64,000 nt of DNA from Candidatus Omnitrophota bacterium (GCA_029561555.1 JAKQXH010000058.1:2949-66948); one strand, 5' to 3'. Shown: positions 7,065-41,135, counted from the first letter of the stretch. Numbers and translations are program-made. Notes: generated by a model from the letters alone, not told the origin.

Positions 7065-7598
7065 CTACATTCCCGCTTCGCGATTGGCCTGAGTTTCGTT
7101 CACGTCCGTGCGCTGCATCCAGCGCCGGGAACGGAGGACAAAAACCTGATATTTCCCGTTCCCGATCACCCAGCGGATCTCGAACGGGATGAATTCGTAA
7201 AAATGGACGTCCGGAAGCTGAAAAAGGTCTTTGGATGTCGGATATTTCTGCAGATAGGCGTCTTTGTAACGTTGAAGCCATTTCGCGTCTTTCGCCTCGT
7301 CGAGAAGATTCGTGGTGCAGATAAAAGTCACTTTCTGTTTCTCGTGAGTCGGAATGGATTTTTGTTCCATCAACAGCAGGCTGACTTCCGAATTCCTCGC
7401 GATGTTCTTCCCGTGCTGCGAAAAATCGCTCAGGATCACGGAAAATCTCCCGAACTCCCCTTCCTCTTTCTTGAACACAAAGCCCATCCCGCTCACGAAC
7501 GGGCGGCTGTAATCCAGCGAAGCCAACGCCAGCTCCTGGGACTCAAGCGCCAACGCCTGGACTTTCTGGAACATCACGACGACGCTGTCTGTAAACAT
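7065..7598 (-). CDS. Pyridoxamine 5'-phosphate oxidase-like FMN-binding split-barrel family protein (putative)
   Basis: 177 aa. The pattern resembles the PPOX/HugZ-like family only weakly (LASLD..PFVS...ARN..VSLLL; C-terminal FYEFIP...GNGKY). Confidence 0.45.
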   Translation of the reverse strand: MFTDSVVVMFQKVQALALESQELALASLDYSRPFVSGMGFVFKKEEGEFGRFSVILSDFSQHGKNIARNSEVSLLLMEQKSIPTHEKQKVTFICTTNLLDEAKDAKWLQRYKDAYLQKYPTSKDLFQLPDVHFYEFIPFEIRWVIGNGKYQVFVLRSRRWMQRTDVNETQANREAGM

Positions 7599-7641: not shown

Positions 7642-8925
7642 CTACACCCTCAGATCCGCCTTCTTGAATTTAAACTCCGGAAATTCGGGCAACCGGTCTC
7701 CGATCAGGGGGAGCGCGTATTTTGAAAAAGCGGGCGAAATCCCTGTTTTCTCCGAATTCAAAAAGCAGGTCGGGAAATACCACTCCCGGTTCGGGATTTT
7801 TTCCAGAGGAACGGGACAATATTGAATGCGGTATTGGGGCCCCGGCTGTCTGACAAACCCGACCATCACTTTTGAAATCCCCTTGAGAGCCCATTGCACC
7901 GCCCGTTCTCCCGCTTCATAGGCCTCCCGCTGATCCACGGAGGAAACATAAGGGATCGACATTCTCTGAATCGTCCCCGGCTTGTCGTACCGCGCGCGCA
8001 CCTTGAGGTTTCTTTCAACCGACTGCGCGAGATAAGCGGCCGCGCCCTCGACATAAACATGCCCGAACCCGTCCCGGACAATCCCCTCCTTCTTGGTCCC
8101 GACCCGCTTCCCCGCCTCGTCCCGGATCGTCTCCGAAATCACCACGACACAATACCCCGCATCCCGCAGAACGCGCTCGACATTCCCCAAAAATCCCGAT
8201 TCCTCAAACGGGACTTCGGGAAGCAGCAAAAGATGGGGCGCTTCTTTTTCCGAACGCTTGAGCAGCGCGGAGGCGGCCACGATCCATCCTGAATTCCGGC
8301 CCATCAACTCGATGATTTTGACGGGATCGACATGCCTCATGGATTTCGTGTCCCATCCGGCTTCCTGCGTCGTGATCGCGGCAAAACGGGCCACGGAACC
8401 GTAGCCGGGGCAGTGATCCGTCTCGACCAGATCGTTATCGATGGTTTTGGGGACATGCACGACCCGGAGTTCGTATTGTTTATCCCGCGCCGCTTCCGCG
8501 ATCCTCAGGACCGTCTCCGCCGTGTCATTCCCGCCGATCAGGAAAAGATAGCGGACGTCCCATTTCTCCAGTTTCTCGAGGATTTCGAATTCTTCCCCGC
8601 CCTGCAATTTGTAACGGGAAGAACCCAAAACGGCCGAAGGCAGATTCCGGATATCGCGGCTGAAATTTTTCGGCTGGACTTTCAAATCCACCAAATCGTC
8701 GGTGAGAATGCCCGTCACCCCGTACTGGGCGCCCCAAATCTGGGTAATCGCCTTGGAACTTTTCGCGGCATCCAAAATCCCGGCCAGGCTCTGATTGATG
8801 ACGGCCGTACAGCCCCCGGACTGCCCTAAAATCGCCTTTCCCTTTAGCGGTGTCACAATCCCCTTCTTCCTCTGCAAAATTTCCTTTTTAGATTTTGCCG
8901 TCCCAGCGACCGCCCTTCCGGTCAA
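7642..8925 (-). CDS. pfp: 6-phosphofructokinase, probably pyrophosphate-dependent
   Basis: PFK-A family motifs GQSGGCTAVIN, IGGNDT, PKTIDNDL and MGRNSGW. Asp at the GGxD position and Lys in PKTIDND are the residues classically associated with PPi rather than ATP use. Confidence 0.85.
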   Translation of the reverse strand: MTGRAVAGTAKSKKEILQRKKGIVTPLKGKAILGQSGGCTAVINQSLAGILDAAKSSKAITQIWGAQYGVTGILTDDLVDLKVQPKNFSRDIRNLPSAVLGSSRYKLQGGEEFEILEKLEKWDVRYLFLIGGNDTAETVLRIAEAARDKQYELRVVHVPKTIDNDLVETDHCPGYGSVARFAAITTQEAGWDTKSMRHVDPVKIIELMGRNSGWIVAASALLKRSEKEAPHLLLLPEVPFEESGFLGNVERVLRDAGYCVVVISETIRDEAGKRVGTKKEGIVRDGFGHVYVEGAAAYLAQSVERNLKVRARYDKPGTIQRMSIPYVSSVDQREAYEAGERAVQWALKGISKVMVGFVRQPGPQYRIQYCPVPLEKIPNREWYFPTCFLNSEKTGISPAFSKYALPLIGDRLPEFPEFKFKKADLRV

Positions 8926-9995: not shown

Positions 9996-11624
9996 ATGCT
10001 GAATACCGAAGGGATTACTTTAGCTTACGGGAGCCGGAAGCTTTTCGAAAACGTGAATCTCTCGCTCGCGCCCGAAAATTGTTACGGCCTGATCGGCGCG
10101 AACGGATCCGGAAAATCCACCTTTCTCAAGATCCTCTCGGGAGAGGTGGAACCCTCTCACGGGACCGTCAGCGTCACGCCCGGCTACCGGATCTCCGTCC
10201 TTCAGCAGGATCATTTTCAGTTCGACGAATACCCCGTCCTGACCACCATTCTCATGGGCCACAAAAAACTTTATGAAGTCATGCTGGCGAAAGACGCCGT
10301 TTACGCGAAGCCGGATTTCTCCGAGGCGGACGGCGTCAGGGCCTCGGAGCTTGAAACGGAATTCGCGGAACTCAACGGATGGGAAGCCGAAGCAGAGGCC
10401 GCGAAGCTCCTGAGCGAACTGGGCATCGCCGAAGAATTCCATTCCCGGAAAATGAAAGACCTCGACGGCAGCCAGAAAGTCCGGGTCCTGCTCGCCCAGG
10501 CCCTTTTCGGGATGCCGGATATCCTCCTGCTCGACGAGCCCACCAACCACCTGGACATCGAAACCACCCTGTGGCTCGAAGAATTTCTGTACGAATTCAA
10601 AAACACCGTCGTCGTCGTCTCCCACGACCGCCATTTTCTGGACAGGGTCTGCACGCACATCCTGGACATCGACTTCGGGAGAATCCAGCTCTACACCGGA
10701 AACTGGAGTTTCTGGTACGAGTCAAGCCAGCTCATCCTCCGCCAGAAAACGGATCAAAACAAACAAATCGAGGAAAAGAGGAAAGAACTCCAGACCTTCA
10801 TCATGCGTTTCAGCAACAACGCGTCGAAATCCCGGCAGGCCACGGCGCGGAAAAAACTCCTCGAAAAACTGACGCTCGAGGACATCAAGCCGTCTTCCCG
10901 CCGCACTCCCTACATTTTCTTCAAAGCGGCCCGGGAAGCCGGAAACGACATCCTCACCGCCGAAGACCTCTCGAAAGCCGTCGAAGGCGAGACCTTGTTC
11001 CGGAACGCCTCGTTCCGCGTGGACAAGGGGGAGAAAATCGCGTTCGTCTCCAAAAACACGACGTCCATCACGGCGCTTTTCCGAATCTTAATGAAGGAAG
11101 CCATCCCCGACGGAGGCGCGTTCAAATGGGGCGCATCGACCGGCCGGGCCTATTTCCCGAAAGACAACGCCTCGTTTTTCGACTGCGATTTAAATCTAAT
11201 TGACTGGCTCCGCCAGTATTCGGCGGAGAAAGACGAGAATTTCATCCGGGGATTCCTGGGGAAAATGCTTTTCTCGGGAGACGAAACCTTGAAAAAGGCC
11301 AACGTCCTTTCGGGAGGAGAAAAAGTCCGCTGTCTGTTCTCCCGGATGATGCTCCTGGAAGCCAATGTCCTGCTCTTCGACGAGCCCACCAATCATCTCG
11401 ACCTGGAAGCCATCACCGCCCTCAACGACGGCCTGATCGCTTTCCGGGGAACGATTTTGTTCACCTCGCACGACCATCAATTCGTCCAGACCGTCGCGAA
11501 CCGCATCATCGAAATCACGCCAAACGGCCTGATCGACAAGCAAAACACGACCTACGACGAATACCTTGCCGACCCGCATGTCCGGGAACGCCGGCGGGAG
11601 CTTTATCCGGCGGGAAAGTCGTAA
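9996..11624 (+). CDS. ABC-F family ATPase (two ABC cassettes, no TMD)
   Basis: Two Walker A motifs (GANGSGKST and a degenerate second NBD), two LSGG signatures (LSGSQKVR, LSGGEKVR), and a charged linker. 542 aa. Confidence 0.9.
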   Translation: MLNTEGITLAYGSRKLFENVNLSLAPENCYGLIGANGSGKSTFLKILSGEVEPSHGTVSVTPGYRISVLQQDHFQFDEYPVLTTILMGHKKLYEVMLAKDAVYAKPDFSEADGVRASELETEFAELNGWEAEAEAAKLLSELGIAEEFHSRKMKDLDGSQKVRVLLAQALFGMPDILLLDEPTNHLDIETTLWLEEFLYEFKNTVVVVSHDRHFLDRVCTHILDIDFGRIQLYTGNWSFWYESSQLILRQKTDQNKQIEEKRKELQTFIMRFSNNASKSRQATARKKLLEKLTLEDIKPSSRRTPYIFFKAAREAGNDILTAEDLSKAVEGETLFRNASFRVDKGEKIAFVSKNTTSITALFRILMKEAIPDGGAFKWGASTGRAYFPKDNASFFDCDLNLIDWLRQYSAEKDENFIRGFLGKMLFSGDETLKKANVLSGGEKVRCLFSRMMLLEANVLLFDEPTNHLDLEAITALNDGLIAFRGTILFTSHDHQFVQTVANRIIEITPNGLIDKQNTTYDEYLADPHVRERRRELYPAGKS

Positions 11625-11660
11625 ACAACCAAAAGCTTTTTATTTTTCCAGTAACCTGTC

Positions 11661-11834
11661 CGGCAAATCTGACTGGAGCGAGCTCTCGCAACCGTTTGGA
11701 GCTTGGTCTGGCGCAAAGCGCCAGTCCAAACGGTGAGAGCGCAGACGGTCGGACGCCGCCGGAGCGGACGAACCGGCGGTCGCGGAAGCAGATTTGCCGA
11801 ACTTTATCGCTTGAAATCTCAAAAAACTTTTGAA
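11661..11834. repeat. Structured intergenic repeat, copy 1 (about 174 nt; 11-bp terminal inverted repeat CGGCAAATCTG/CAGATTTGCCG)
   Basis: Aligns without indels to 39401-39574 in the same orientation, with 13 substitutions. Contains nested complementary segments. Sits between convergent genes. Confidence 0.85.
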
Positions 11835-11907
11835 CGATGCCCTAGCATCCTTCGCCCGGAGGGTAGTGAAGGCAAGCATGTTTCTTCTCTGAAGGACTAA
11901 ATCGGCA

Positions 11908-38032: not shown

Positions 38033-39352
38033 ATGCTAACCCTTATTGCTTGCCTTCTCCTTGTCTCGGGCCTTCAGCCTTTCGGGCTCTGGATGTTGTC
38101 TTATGCCGGTTTTTTCCCGCTCTTTCTTCTGGCGTTTGATCCGAAAATAAAATTTTCAAAGTTGTTTTTTTGCGCGCTCTTTGCGGGCGCCTTTTATTAC
38201 GGAATCTTCTTTTGCTGGCTCACTGCGTACAGCCTCCGGACTTTTTCCTCGGTTTGGCTGATCGTTTCTCCCGTTTTCGCGGTTTATTTCTCGGGAATCC
38301 GCTTGTTCTCAAAAATAAACTTCTCCGCTCTTTTGATCCCGGTTTCGATCGGTTTATGGGCGGCTCTCGAAAAAATATTCGCCCTGACCCCGCTGGGGGC
38401 CGCGGCCCTGCAGCTCCCGTTCTACGGCCCGCCCGCCCTGATGCAAGTCGTCTCCTATGCGGACTTTTGTCTCCTGTCGGGAGCCCTTATGGGCGTCAAT
38501 GCCTCCGCCGCGCTTTTAACCCGGAAGAAATCGCCCGGGGCCTGGTGCGGATTTCTCTTGTCCTCTCTCGTTGTTTCGGGAATTTATTTCCACGGGCATT
38601 TCAGAATGCAAAAGACGGGCGACACAAAAAAATCCGTGAAAGTATCCCTGATTCAGCACAACCTGCCGATCTCGGACGCCTGGCGGGGAAAACACCGGGA
38701 TGAGATCTACCGCCGTTACCGGGAATTGATTTTGAAAGCCGCGGAAGAAGCCCCCGATCTGATCGTTCTCCCCCTTTACACGCTTCCGGACGATCCCCTG
38801 CGCAATCCCGGTTTTTTCGCCGGCCTGGCGCGATCAACAAAAAGCCATATCCTTATCGGAAGTCATATCCCGGAAAAACCCGGCGGGGACCCCGGGAAAA
38901 ATTTTTTGGATGTCGCGATCCTTTACGCGCCGGACGGAAAAATCGCGGGCCTTTATCAGGCGGCACAGGCTCCCCCGTTCCGGGGGATTCCGGAAATAAC
39001 CGGGGACAACGCCGCGCCCCTTAAGGCGTCGTTCGGAACATTCGGCGTCCTTTTGTGCTATGAAGACGTTCTCCCCGGCCCCGCGCGAAAAGCGGTTTCA
39101 TCGGGAGCGGAATGCATCGCGGCCCTGTCCAATCCCGGACATTTCGCGAACACGGATTTGCCTTATTATCACCTGTTTCAGGACAGCCTGAGAGCGATCG
39201 AATCAAACCGGTGGCTCATCCGGGTTTCCCCGAACGGCTATTCCGCAATTGTCGATCCGTCAGGGCGACGGATCAAAAAAAGTGTTCTTCGGGAAGAACA
39301 GGTTCTGACGGGAAAAATCGGCTTGCTTGAAAATACCGCGCAAAACGGCTAA
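38033..39352 (+). CDS. lnt: Apolipoprotein N-acyltransferase
   Basis: N-terminal polytopic region (LVSGLQPFGLWMLSYAGFFPL) plus a C-terminal CN-hydrolase domain (LIVLP..., GVLLCYEDVLP). Confidence 0.85.
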   Translation: MLTLIACLLLVSGLQPFGLWMLSYAGFFPLFLLAFDPKIKFSKLFFCALFAGAFYYGIFFCWLTAYSLRTFSSVWLIVSPVFAVYFSGIRLFSKINFSALLIPVSIGLWAALEKIFALTPLGAAALQLPFYGPPALMQVVSYADFCLLSGALMGVNASAALLTRKKSPGAWCGFLLSSLVVSGIYFHGHFRMQKTGDTKKSVKVSLIQHNLPISDAWRGKHRDEIYRRYRELILKAAEEAPDLIVLPLYTLPDDPLRNPGFFAGLARSTKSHILIGSHIPEKPGGDPGKNFLDVAILYAPDGKIAGLYQAAQAPPFRGIPEITGDNAAPLKASFGTFGVLLCYEDVLPGPARKAVSSGAECIAALSNPGHFANTDLPYYHLFQDSLRAIESNRWLIRVSPNGYSAIVDPSGRRIKKSVLREEQVLTGKIGLLENTAQNG

Positions 39353-39400
39353 GTAACAATGCATAAGTTTTTGTATGCCGAAAACGATGTTCGTCTTGTT

Positions 39401-39574
39401 CGGCAAATCTGACTGGAGCGAGCTCTCGCAACCGTTTGGAGCTTGGTCTGGCGTAAAACGTCAGTCCAAACGGTGAGAGCGCAGGCGGTCGGACGCCGCA
39501 GGAGTGGACGAACCGCCGATCGCGGAAGCAGATTTGCCGAACTTTATGGCCTGAAATTTTAAAAAACTCTTGAA
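39401..39574. repeat. Structured intergenic repeat, copy 2
   Basis: Same orientation as 11661-11834, with 13 substitutions and no indels. Lies between convergent lnt and the clpX-like gene, ending 8 nt from the clpX-like stop codon. Confidence 0.85.
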
Positions 39575-39581
39575 TAGTTAC

Positions 39582-41135
39582 TTAGCCTTTATAGGCCTCT
39601 TTGATCCAGCCGTTCAAGACGGCGTTGGGATTTTCAATCGCTTCTTTGGAAATCAGGAATTCCTTCCCGCCGTTCTTTTCCGAAATCAGGGCGAGTCCGT
39701 AGGCGTAATTCGAAAAAAGTTTCCCGAGAAATTCCGGCGCGTCGCATTCCTTTCCCGCCATTTGTCCCTTGACCGCCTCGCAGGCGGAAGGATCCAAACG
39801 GAGGCGGATGCGGTTTTTCTCGAAAAAATCCTGTTCGAAACGCCGGATCGCCGACACGATCTCATGCTCGACTTCACCTTTCAGAAGCTCTCCGAGCCGC
39901 GCCCCGGGAGACAGGACGCCTTCCTTTGTCAGATCGAATTCCCGGATCTGAGTCGAAGGCAGTTCGTATTTGAAGCCCCTTAAAATTTTCTCGCAAACCG
40001 TGAGAAGCCCGCGGGCGCCGGTCCCTTCCCGGGCGGCTTTCTTCGCGATCTCCCGGAGCGCGTCCTTCTCAAATCTCGCATCGATCCCGTATCCGCGGAA
40101 ATCCGCCGCGTATTGGCGGAGGATCGAGCCTTCCGATTCCGTCAAAATCCGGTACAGATCCTCTTCCGACAACGGATCGCAGACCACCCGCACCGGCAGA
40201 CGTCCGACAAACTCCGGTTCAAATCCGAACGTCACGAAATCCTCCGTCCGGACTTCATTCAGCACATTCCCCGCCCCGGAATGCTCCGCGGGTTTCTGCG
40301 AAAAACCCACGACGCTCTGCCGCAATCTTTTCTCGACGATCGAATTCAGCTCGCCGAACGCCCCGCTCACGATGAAAAGGACGTGACGGGTATTGACCGT
40401 CGCCCGCGCCGTTTTTCCTTTACGCTGTAAATCCATGACCGCTTGAATTTGGGATTGAATATCCATGGGACTTCGGACCGGCACGTCCGTCTCCTCCAGC
40501 AACTTGAGAAGCCCCCGCTGGACCCCGCTCCCGCTCACGTCGCGCCCGATCACGTGAGAAGGCGCCGCGATTTTGTCGATTTCATCGAGATAAACGATCC
40601 CGCATTCCGCAAGCTCCGCGTCCCCGTCCGCCTTGCCGACAAGCTCCCGGACCAGGTCTTCGACATCCCCCCCGACATATCCGGTCTCGCTGAATTTCGT
40701 CGCGTCACCTTTCACGAACGGGACCCCGATCAATTCCGCAAGGCTCCGGACCAGATAAGTCTTCCCGACCCCCGTCGGCCCGAGAATGATCACGTTCTGT
40801 TTGACGTAATGCCGGCATTTCTTCCCGTCCCGGCAAGCCTTGATGTGGTTGTAATGATCGCAAATTACCGTCGCCAGGACTTTTTTCGCCTCATCCTGCT
40901 TGATCACATACCGGTCCAGGTATTTCTTGATGTCTTTCGGCTTGAGATGAAAGTCCAAAACCCGTTTAAACTTTTCTTCTTCCGCTTTCCCCGGCTCTTC
41001 CTTGGGAGCCTCGGCCTTCGGCGGCGTCACCACCGTCGCATGCTCCATGATTTTCTTAAAAGCCTCCGACAGCTCTTTCTGAAGTTCCGCCGGGTCCTTG
41101 TCTTTTTTCTCGCTCATCTCGTATTTCCTTTTCAT
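39582..41135 (-). CDS. ClpX-family AAA+ ATPase lacking the N-terminal zinc-binding domain, with a C-terminal extension
   Basis: LDRYVIKQDEAKKVLA, Walker A GPTGVGKT, pore loop ETGYVGGDVED, Walker B IVYLDEIDK, and a VGF tripeptide at the IGF-loop position. 517 aa, with no C4 zinc ribbon at the N-terminus. Confidence 0.8.
   Translation of the reverse strand: MKRKYEMSEKKDKDPAELQKELSEAFKKIMEHATVVTPPKAEAPKEEPGKAEEEKFKRVLDFHLKPKDIKKYLDRYVIKQDEAKKVLATVICDHYNHIKACRDGKKCRHYVKQNVIILGPTGVGKTYLVRSLAELIGVPFVKGDATKFSETGYVGGDVEDLVRELVGKADGDAELAECGIVYLDEIDKIAAPSHVIGRDVSGSGVQRGLLKLLEETDVPVRSPMDIQSQIQAVMDLQRKGKTARATVNTRHVLFIVSGAFGELNSIVEKRLRQSVVGFSQKPAEHSGAGNVLNEVRTEDFVTFGFEPEFVGRLPVRVVCDPLSEEDLYRILTESEGSILRQYAADFRGYGIDARFEKDALREIAKKAAREGTGARGLLTVCEKILRGFKYELPSTQIREFDLTKEGVLSPGARLGELLKGEVEHEIVSAIRRFEQDFFEKNRIRLRLDPSACEAVKGQMAGKECDAPEFLGKLFSNYAYGLALISEKNGGKEFLISKEAIENPNAVLNGWIKEAYKG

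Follow-up and report, generated by a model that had tools for sequence, protein, structure and literature searches.

The sequence analyzed here (hereafter the window) is a stretch of 64,000 nucleotides of a 73-kb metagenome contig, NODE_86 of ENA ERZ795044, from the Omnitrophota, a phylum known almost solely from metagenomes. It carries a 178-nt repeat at 11657-11834 (copy 1) and at 39397-39574 (copy 2), both on the plus strand and 92% identical to each other, and these were the only two copies within the 64,000 nt, including in a search with a covariance model. Copy 1 lies between convergent genes for an ABC-F ATPase (plus strand) and a nitroreductase (minus strand), and copy 2 between convergent genes for the apolipoprotein N-acyltransferase Lnt (38033-39352, plus strand) and an AAA+ ATPase (39582-41135, minus strand). 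A first-pass annotation had compared 39401-39574 with 11661-11834 and proposed that the differences reflect selection on a fold, in RNA or in cruciform DNA. Over this range we count 13 differences, eight in the folded body and five in a 3' tail that had been taken as unpaired. The five changes are indeed there, but the tail is the right terminal inverted repeat of a larger unit, and in copy 2 its partner sits upstream of the point at which the annotation had begun (39344-39372 with 39562-39590).

The segment is a copy of a MITE of about 231 bp, not a free-standing RNA gene. The complete element in copy 2 occupies 39352-39582 (231 nt, plus strand), runs from AGTAAC to GTTACT and lies within CTA/.../TAG with the TA duplicated. 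The left target TA (39350-39351) together with the element's first A forms the TAA stop codon of Lnt, and the right target TA (39583-39584) together with its last T forms the TAA stop codon, on the minus strand, of the AAA+ ATPase. The left terminal inverted repeat (AGTAACAATGCATAAGTTTTT, 39352-39372, plus strand) is conserved in L024, L027, L029, L023, L022 and L033, and the right one (AAAAACTCTTGAATAGTTACT, 39562-39582, plus strand) makes up most of the former tail; this inverted repeat, I1, is 29 nt long when the CTA/TAG flanks are included and is 83% complementary. Most copies are bounded by CTAAGTAAC...GTTACTTAG, which form a perfect 9-bp match; the imperfect terminal inverted repeats take up the outermost ~21-25 nt of the arms, and these ends recur at no fewer than eight unrelated loci. 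The 231-nt element is without a conserved open reading frame and is overlapped only by chance ones of 33-52 amino acids. Since neither strand of the core contains an ATG, a toxin-antitoxin or small-peptide locus was rejected.

Relatives in which the site is empty show how copy 2 arrived. In the closest relative (L007, whose Lnt is 68% identical), the gene order is that of the window, MutL-MutS-Lnt-AAA+-GCD14, and Lnt and AAA+ overlap by 4 bp at CTAG (AAAAACTAGCCTTGA, ~11332); in a more distant relative (L011), the two genes lie 9 bp apart and the site is likewise empty. Comparison of the filled site, ...GGCTA/AGTAAC...GTTACT/TAGCC..., with the empty CTAG indicates insertion into TA with the TA duplicated. 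Other copies are flanked by C-TA...TA-G or by T-TA...TA-A, and the copy in L018 by the halves of TTAA. With A as its first base and T as its last, the element rebuilds TAA stop codons on both strands when it inserts, so that such insertions are tolerated. The window has only 10 CTAG sites where base composition predicts 242, a 24-fold under-representation, and thus the stop codons that convergent genes share belong to a small set of possible targets; this scarcity may shape the possible landing places of the copies. The counts of TTAA (100) and TATA (55) are also low over 1-64000.

The empty-site evidence is clean for copy 2 only; that for copy 1 is partial, since its ends are degenerate and 62 extra bases are present. 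In L042 (5686-5689) and L043 (11626-11629), where the gene order is kept and ABC-F is 90% identical to that of the window, there is a 4-bp overlap, TTAA, between the ABC-F and nitroreductase genes, and the site is empty. The block absent from these relatives is 283 bp long (11625-11907) and includes 62 unique bases at 11846-11907. The right arm of copy 1 (11803-11845, plus strand) is a degenerate repeat that ends ...GATGCCCTAG, with CTAG at its very end (11842-11845), and is 93% identical to the A-type right-arm consensus. The left arm (11624-11657, plus strand, its boundary inferred) is degenerate and shortened, begins at the TAA stop codon of ABC-F and matches the arm consensus at no more than 60% of positions, close to the random level. 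We had at first placed this left end at the AGTAAC of 11650-11655, a choice that was dropped; a start at the ABC-F stop codon is more likely, considering the empty site in L042 and L043 and an inverted repeat (I3) in which CAAAAGCTTTTT (11630-11641) pairs with AAAAAACTTTTG (11821-11832) over 12 nt with 92% complementarity. The 62 nt that separate the right end of copy 1 from the stop codon of the nitroreductase gene contain a hairpin, CCTTCGCCC-GGA-GGGTAGTGAAGG, and matched nothing in the relatives or in any other locus compared.

Further copies were collected by scanning metagenomes with an 18-mer of the core, which returned 25 loci; 16 of them hold the element, one twice, and nine are chance matches. 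Removal of duplicates left 18 distinct copies from this organism and its close relatives, namely the two of the window and 16 others, at unrelated loci in four metagenome samples. At least six are in the window's own assembly and at least ten in Ga0172375, the sample containing the closest relative, the others being in Ga0116177 and Ga0208460; these numbers are lower bounds, as the scan did not list NODE_86 despite its two exact matches to the pattern. The neighbors of the copies are unrelated housekeeping genes, in every orientation relative to the element. Ten of 14 copies have a convergent gene downstream, a bias that is too weak for use. The 18 cores were combined into a covariance model to seek diverged copies; it detected none elsewhere in the window, in 31 kb of the relatives with 90% identical ABC-F or in the loci of more distant Omnitrophota. 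The family thus looks restricted to a narrow lineage, with about one copy per 30-60 kb in the genomes that carry it. BLAST against plasmid and phage collections gave no match, and scans of IMG/VR with five patterns gave nothing or chance matches only. A scan of a genome collection with GCAAATCTGACTGGAGCGAG hit a single site, in coding sequence on an unrelated contig of 1.9 kb (L006), which we take as chance. One locus carries two inverted copies (L021a and L021b) around a ShlB-like gene; a composite transposon was considered here and rejected, since the ShlB-like gene encodes a conserved transporter of the outer membrane and L021a and L021b are unlike in age and in their ends.

The core of copy 2 (39398-39542, plus strand, 145 nt) folds into a three-way junction, assigned from the minimum-free-energy fold, the consensus fold and covariation, and scores 173 bits with the covariance model. 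A stem of 14 bp closes the fold, which further comprises a long hairpin, interrupted and variable at its GC-rich tip, and another hairpin rich in GC. On the plus strand, the helices are P1 (39398-39411/39529-39542), P2 (39418-39421/39520-39523), P3a (39422-39427/39475-39480), P3b (39431-39440/39465-39474), P3c (39448-39454/39458-39464) and P4 (39484-39497/39502-39517). Copy 1 forms the same junction at 11658-11802 (plus strand, 173.5 bits), with P1 at 11658-11671/11789-11802 and P3c at 11708-11714/11718-11724. The first-pass annotation had asked for more homologs and for the folding energies of both strands against shuffled controls. With the 16 further copies, RNAalifold returns the junction described above, and both cores are far more stable than their shuffles: for copy 2, −80.5 kcal/mol on the plus strand (z −7.4) and −70.4 on the minus strand (z −6.4); for copy 1, −79.0 kcal/mol (z −5.7) and −78.1 (z −7.0), respectively.

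Most of what had been read from the two copies holds when the junction is taken as the frame. The apical hairpins are CTGGCGC-AAA-GCGCCAG in copy 1 (11708-11724) and CTGGCGT-AAA-ACGTCAG in copy 2 (39448-39464), so the loop-closing pair changes at both positions, from C-G to T-A, and a second pair of the same hairpin (alignment columns 56:66) changes from G-C to G-T, just as claimed. The helix ACCGTTTGGA/TCCAAACGGT is identical in the two copies, with no substitution; in the larger set, the invariance of the CCGTTTGGA helix is partly imposed, as the search pattern fixes columns 35-52 (P3b). The closing stem is free of substitutions between the two copies, as had been stated, but it is 14 bp long rather than 11. 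The bases at 11745/11776 (A and G in copy 1) and 39485/39516 (G and C in copy 2) were also read correctly, but their description as a compensated pair was not borne out: across the 18 copies this position is G-C in ten and non-canonical in eight.

Once two large insertions are removed, the 18 cores, extracted as 147 nt each, align free of gaps. Canonical pairs fill 97.7% of the pair cells, against 95.1% in shuffles, although 38 of the 110 paired columns vary. Eleven of the 55 pairs show double changes, whereas shuffled alignments show 4.2±1.3 and none of 500 reaches 11; sliding the partners by 1-3 columns leaves 0-1. The double changes lie in four helices (P1, P2, P3c and P4), most of the cells in P3c being derived from two hairpin types, CTGGCGC and CCGGGGC. 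Several double changes are seen in one copy only within a sub-family, among them three pairs in L034, 6:144 in L024, 58:64 in L018 and again in L035, and 59:63 in copy 2 and again in L021b. Independent compensations are present in both sub-families, and at least a dozen of them are implied by the alignment. Two kinds of insertion, found inside the elements only, fold as extra arms and leave the scaffold undisturbed: one of ~100 nt in the P4 loop (L018 6332-6431, L019 10816-10912, L024 ~7330-7426, L033 5996-6091) and one of 49-99 nt at the P4/P2 junction (L023 7445-7493, L033 6109-6207, nested in the latter). These comparisons support selection on the base pairing of the 145-nt junction, and hence the view that the fold matters; selection on a fold, as first proposed, is supported, and a cruciform of double-stranded DNA is disfavored by the strand asymmetry described next.

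In the 18 cores, G·U occupies 30 cells (13 pairs) and A·C 11 (8 pairs), and the direction of the asymmetry is kept irrespective of whether an upstream gene could read through into the plus strand (10:3 in one group, 12:6 in the other). The plus strand is the more stable one in 17 of the 18 cores, by 5.7 kcal/mol on average (Wilcoxon p = 1.4e-4, the copies not being independent). The hint of a functional plus strand that had been drawn from a single wobble pair is thereby reinforced, and a symmetric cruciform of double-stranded DNA is disfavored. The sequences favor a single-stranded plus strand as the constrained molecule and would fit RNA and single-stranded DNA of the same strand alike; we consider that it is probably plus-strand RNA.

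The core is also what persists when the rest of the element decays. Among copies with recognizable ends, pairwise identity is 0.91 in the core, 0.73 in the left arms and 0.75 in the right arms. We put the conservation of the core at three times that of the arms; collecting copies by an exact 18-mer of the core inflates its apparent conservation, and although the columns of this search word were excluded, rate heterogeneity among copies could still bias the comparison. In copies with decayed arms, the arms are down to 0.58-0.69 (random, 0.57±0.06) while the cores retain an identity of 0.86-0.95 to the consensus. A single locus is clearly orthologous, L021a/L025, lying between a ShlB-like gene and a CHASE2-SpoIIE gene in two species; there the core is 96.6% identical, against 81% over 1,400 flanking bases, and the 100 nt adjoining the core are 88-94% identical. 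In 37 kb around ShlB-like genes of relatives with 53-54% protein identity, the gene order differs and the orthologous copy is absent.

The copies also seem to exchange parts. The elements at L027 3975-4211 and L029 5094-5330 have near-identical arms (100% on the left, 97.7% on the right) and different P3c types, and all four combinations of hairpin type and the variant at columns 90/121 exist across the copies, which indicates recombination or gene conversion among them. Gene conversion may add to the homogeneity of the core and would lower the number of independent compensatory events; recombination cannot by itself produce pairing. At the end of an amino-acid permease gene, an element is found at the same site in L016 (8560-8810) and L023 (7370-7680) with B-type and A-type arms, respectively, which suggests that the site was re-used or that one element was replaced by recombination.

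Insertion at TA with a 2-bp duplication is a hallmark of IS630/Tc1-mariner transposons, and Stowaway-like MITEs belong with them, RUP of Streptococcus pneumoniae being the usual bacterial example. The element combines what is expected of a MITE, that is, a small non-coding unit, terminal inverted repeats, TA duplication, dispersed copies and presence or absence between relatives, with the IS630/Tc1-mariner target (TA, 2-bp duplication and CTAG preference); insertion of the IS630 family at TA with a 2-bp duplication, preferably at CTAG, is described in PMC2170065 and indicated by the title of Tenzen & Ohtsubo 1991 in its reference list. We infer from the target and the ends that the element may be mobilised by a transposase of the IS630/Tc1-mariner type. 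Neither an autonomous partner nor further matching ends were found in the window and ~500 kb of loci, or in IMG/VR. The IS200/IS605-derived and REP/RAYT classes do not accommodate an element with terminal inverted repeats, TA duplication and a 145-nt branched fold. The element shares with IS630/Tc1-mariner MITEs a small, non-coding sequence, terminal inverted repeats of ~20-30 bp and dispersed copies that vary between relatives; unlike theirs, its interior is no decaying remnant but a three-way junction whose conservation exceeds that of the terminal repeats.

Taken as a whole, the explanation that we prefer, with a probability of about 0.72, is an Omnitrophota MITE with a fold under selection and a plus-strand RNA that acts in cis. 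A transposase supplied in trans would recognize the imperfect terminal inverted repeats of ~21-25 bp and insert the element at TA, duplicating it, with CTAG as the preferred and TTAA as an occasional target. The usable CTAG sites would be overlapping stop codons of convergent genes, where insertion would be tolerated as the TAA stops are rebuilt. The plus-strand RNA of the core would then work in cis, within transcripts of gene-end or intergenic regions, either as a very stable block to 3' exonucleases or as a structure bound by a processing or binding factor. By analogy with REP, ERIC, Correia and bcr1 repeats, we propose such a role in 3'-end protection or processing with modest confidence. 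Two counterpoints should be considered: since the copies lie in every orientation, read-through alone would often give the minus strand, which fits poorly with the consistent plus-strand signature, and a plain exonuclease block needs neither a specific three-way junction nor conserved unpaired bases. A bolder proposal, about which we are more doubtful than convinced, is that the junction is a functional RNA (protein-binding, regulatory or catalytic) that is copied by a TA-targeting MITE, the host keeping copies that are no longer mobile; if so, it would be a structured RNA module dispersed by a bacterial transposon, of a class not yet described.

A trans-acting small RNA, whether protein-binding, regulatory or a ribozyme, could also be expressed from a promoter in the left arm, the MITE either spreading the core or having left copies that became domesticated. 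We consider this unlikely, yet several observations would suit it: the plus-strand signature is unchanged by the orientation of the neighboring genes, the core outlives the arms and at the orthologous locus is more conserved than the flanking coding DNA, unpaired positions are conserved, with three GGA motifs in loops or internal loops, and ~35 nt upstream of P1 are alike across sub-families and in decayed copies. On the other hand, dozens of near-identical genes for one small RNA would be unusual, and the family is limited to a narrow clade, absent as it is from the 37 kb of ShlB relatives mentioned above. To our knowledge, Omnitrophota promoters are uncharacterised; a scan of both window elements found no promoter matching the sigma-70 consensus. 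Neither element has an intrinsic terminator, P1 being followed by AACUUUAU. Rfam 15 at gathering thresholds gave no match over the whole window, and at E<=10 copy 2 and the longest variant (L033) gave only spurious matches to sroD and mir-228 at 13 bits, while ARAGORN found no tRNA or tmRNA.

The fold could instead serve propagation at the DNA level, as a hairpin or cruciform of single-stranded or supercoiled DNA seen by the transposase or a host factor, with selection acting on the element itself. The core is common to both mobile sub-families and to the insertion variants, G·T is tolerated in DNA hairpins, and the plus strand folded as DNA is also far below its shuffles (−58.8 kcal/mol, z −7.6). 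A cruciform, however, requires pairing of both strands, which does not agree with the 30:11 asymmetry, and the core is retained in copies with decayed ends, which are no longer mobile, as well as at 96.6% identity in the orthologous L021a/L025; the idea is also a poor fit with the known mechanics of the IS630 family, and we regard it as quite improbable. It is scarcely credible that there is no structural selection at all, that is, that the copies are young or gene-converted and inherited their compensation from two or three ancestral forms of the hairpin: most of the double-change cells do come from the two main P3c types and the four combinations of linked variants do indicate recombination, but arms that are 25-27% diverged show that the copies are not young, the 11 double-change pairs are spread over four helices, several being confined, within a sub-family, to one copy, the cells stay canonical despite the 38 varying columns, and both large insertions lie in a loop or at a junction.

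The cis-acting reading has its closest parallels among bacterial repeats of similar size or position. REPs are associated with RAYT transposases; like the element, REP and BIME repeats are GC-rich, extragenic, structured and found at gene ends, but REPs are single hairpins of 20-40 bp without terminal inverted repeats or target duplication, both of which the 231-bp element has. In PMC3733652, REP/BIME repeats are given as proposed to stabilise upstream mRNA. ERIC (IRU) and Correia (CREE/NEMIS) repeats are co-transcribed, and some of their RNA hairpins affect mRNA processing or stability (PMC3184786). They resemble the element as imperfect palindromic MITEs flanked by TA, often at the 3' ends of genes, and differ from it in folding as a single long hairpin, in belonging to Proteobacteria and in sharing no sequence with it; for Correia, functional promoters have been reported and an IHF-binding site described. 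The repeat bcr1 of the Bacillus cereus group is transcribed and, in the account of Klevan 2007 given in PMC3184786, forms a branched, "cruciform-like" RNA of two stem-loops that is kept by compensatory changes. Like the element, bcr1 is a mobile repeat of ~150-230 bp whose location varies between related genomes. Unlike it, bcr1 has 5-bp direct repeats, belongs to another phylum and shows no sequence similarity, whereas the element has a TA duplication and a three-way junction closed by a 14-bp stem.

If correct, the preferred reading adds a previously undescribed MITE family from Omnitrophota with a clear insertion logic at overlapping stop codons. Its unusual feature is an interior better conserved than the transposon ends and the neighboring coding DNA, so that the interior looks like a selected structured RNA rather than junk and offers a tractable case of a mobile repeat turning into an RNA-level regulatory part. 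Nothing is overturned by this, as compensatory evolution is already documented in bacterial MITE-like repeats such as bcr1. The covariance model is ready for finding the element in other assemblies.

Two minor observations were made along the way. A gapped P1 pattern matched an IMG/VR contig (L047), where the covariance model rejected the match; the sequence there consists of iteron-like palindromes, four of which (AGGCAAATCTGCC, AGGCACATTTGCC, GGGCAAATGTGCC and AGGCAGATTTGCC) lie at 7851-7973 with a spacing of ~30-40 nt. They are unrelated to the element and might mark a replication origin or an array of protein-binding sites. In the window itself, GC skew is negative in every 2-kb bin over 1-64000 (−0.04 to −0.22), the plus strand being C-rich throughout; the window as a whole is probably part of one replichore arm.
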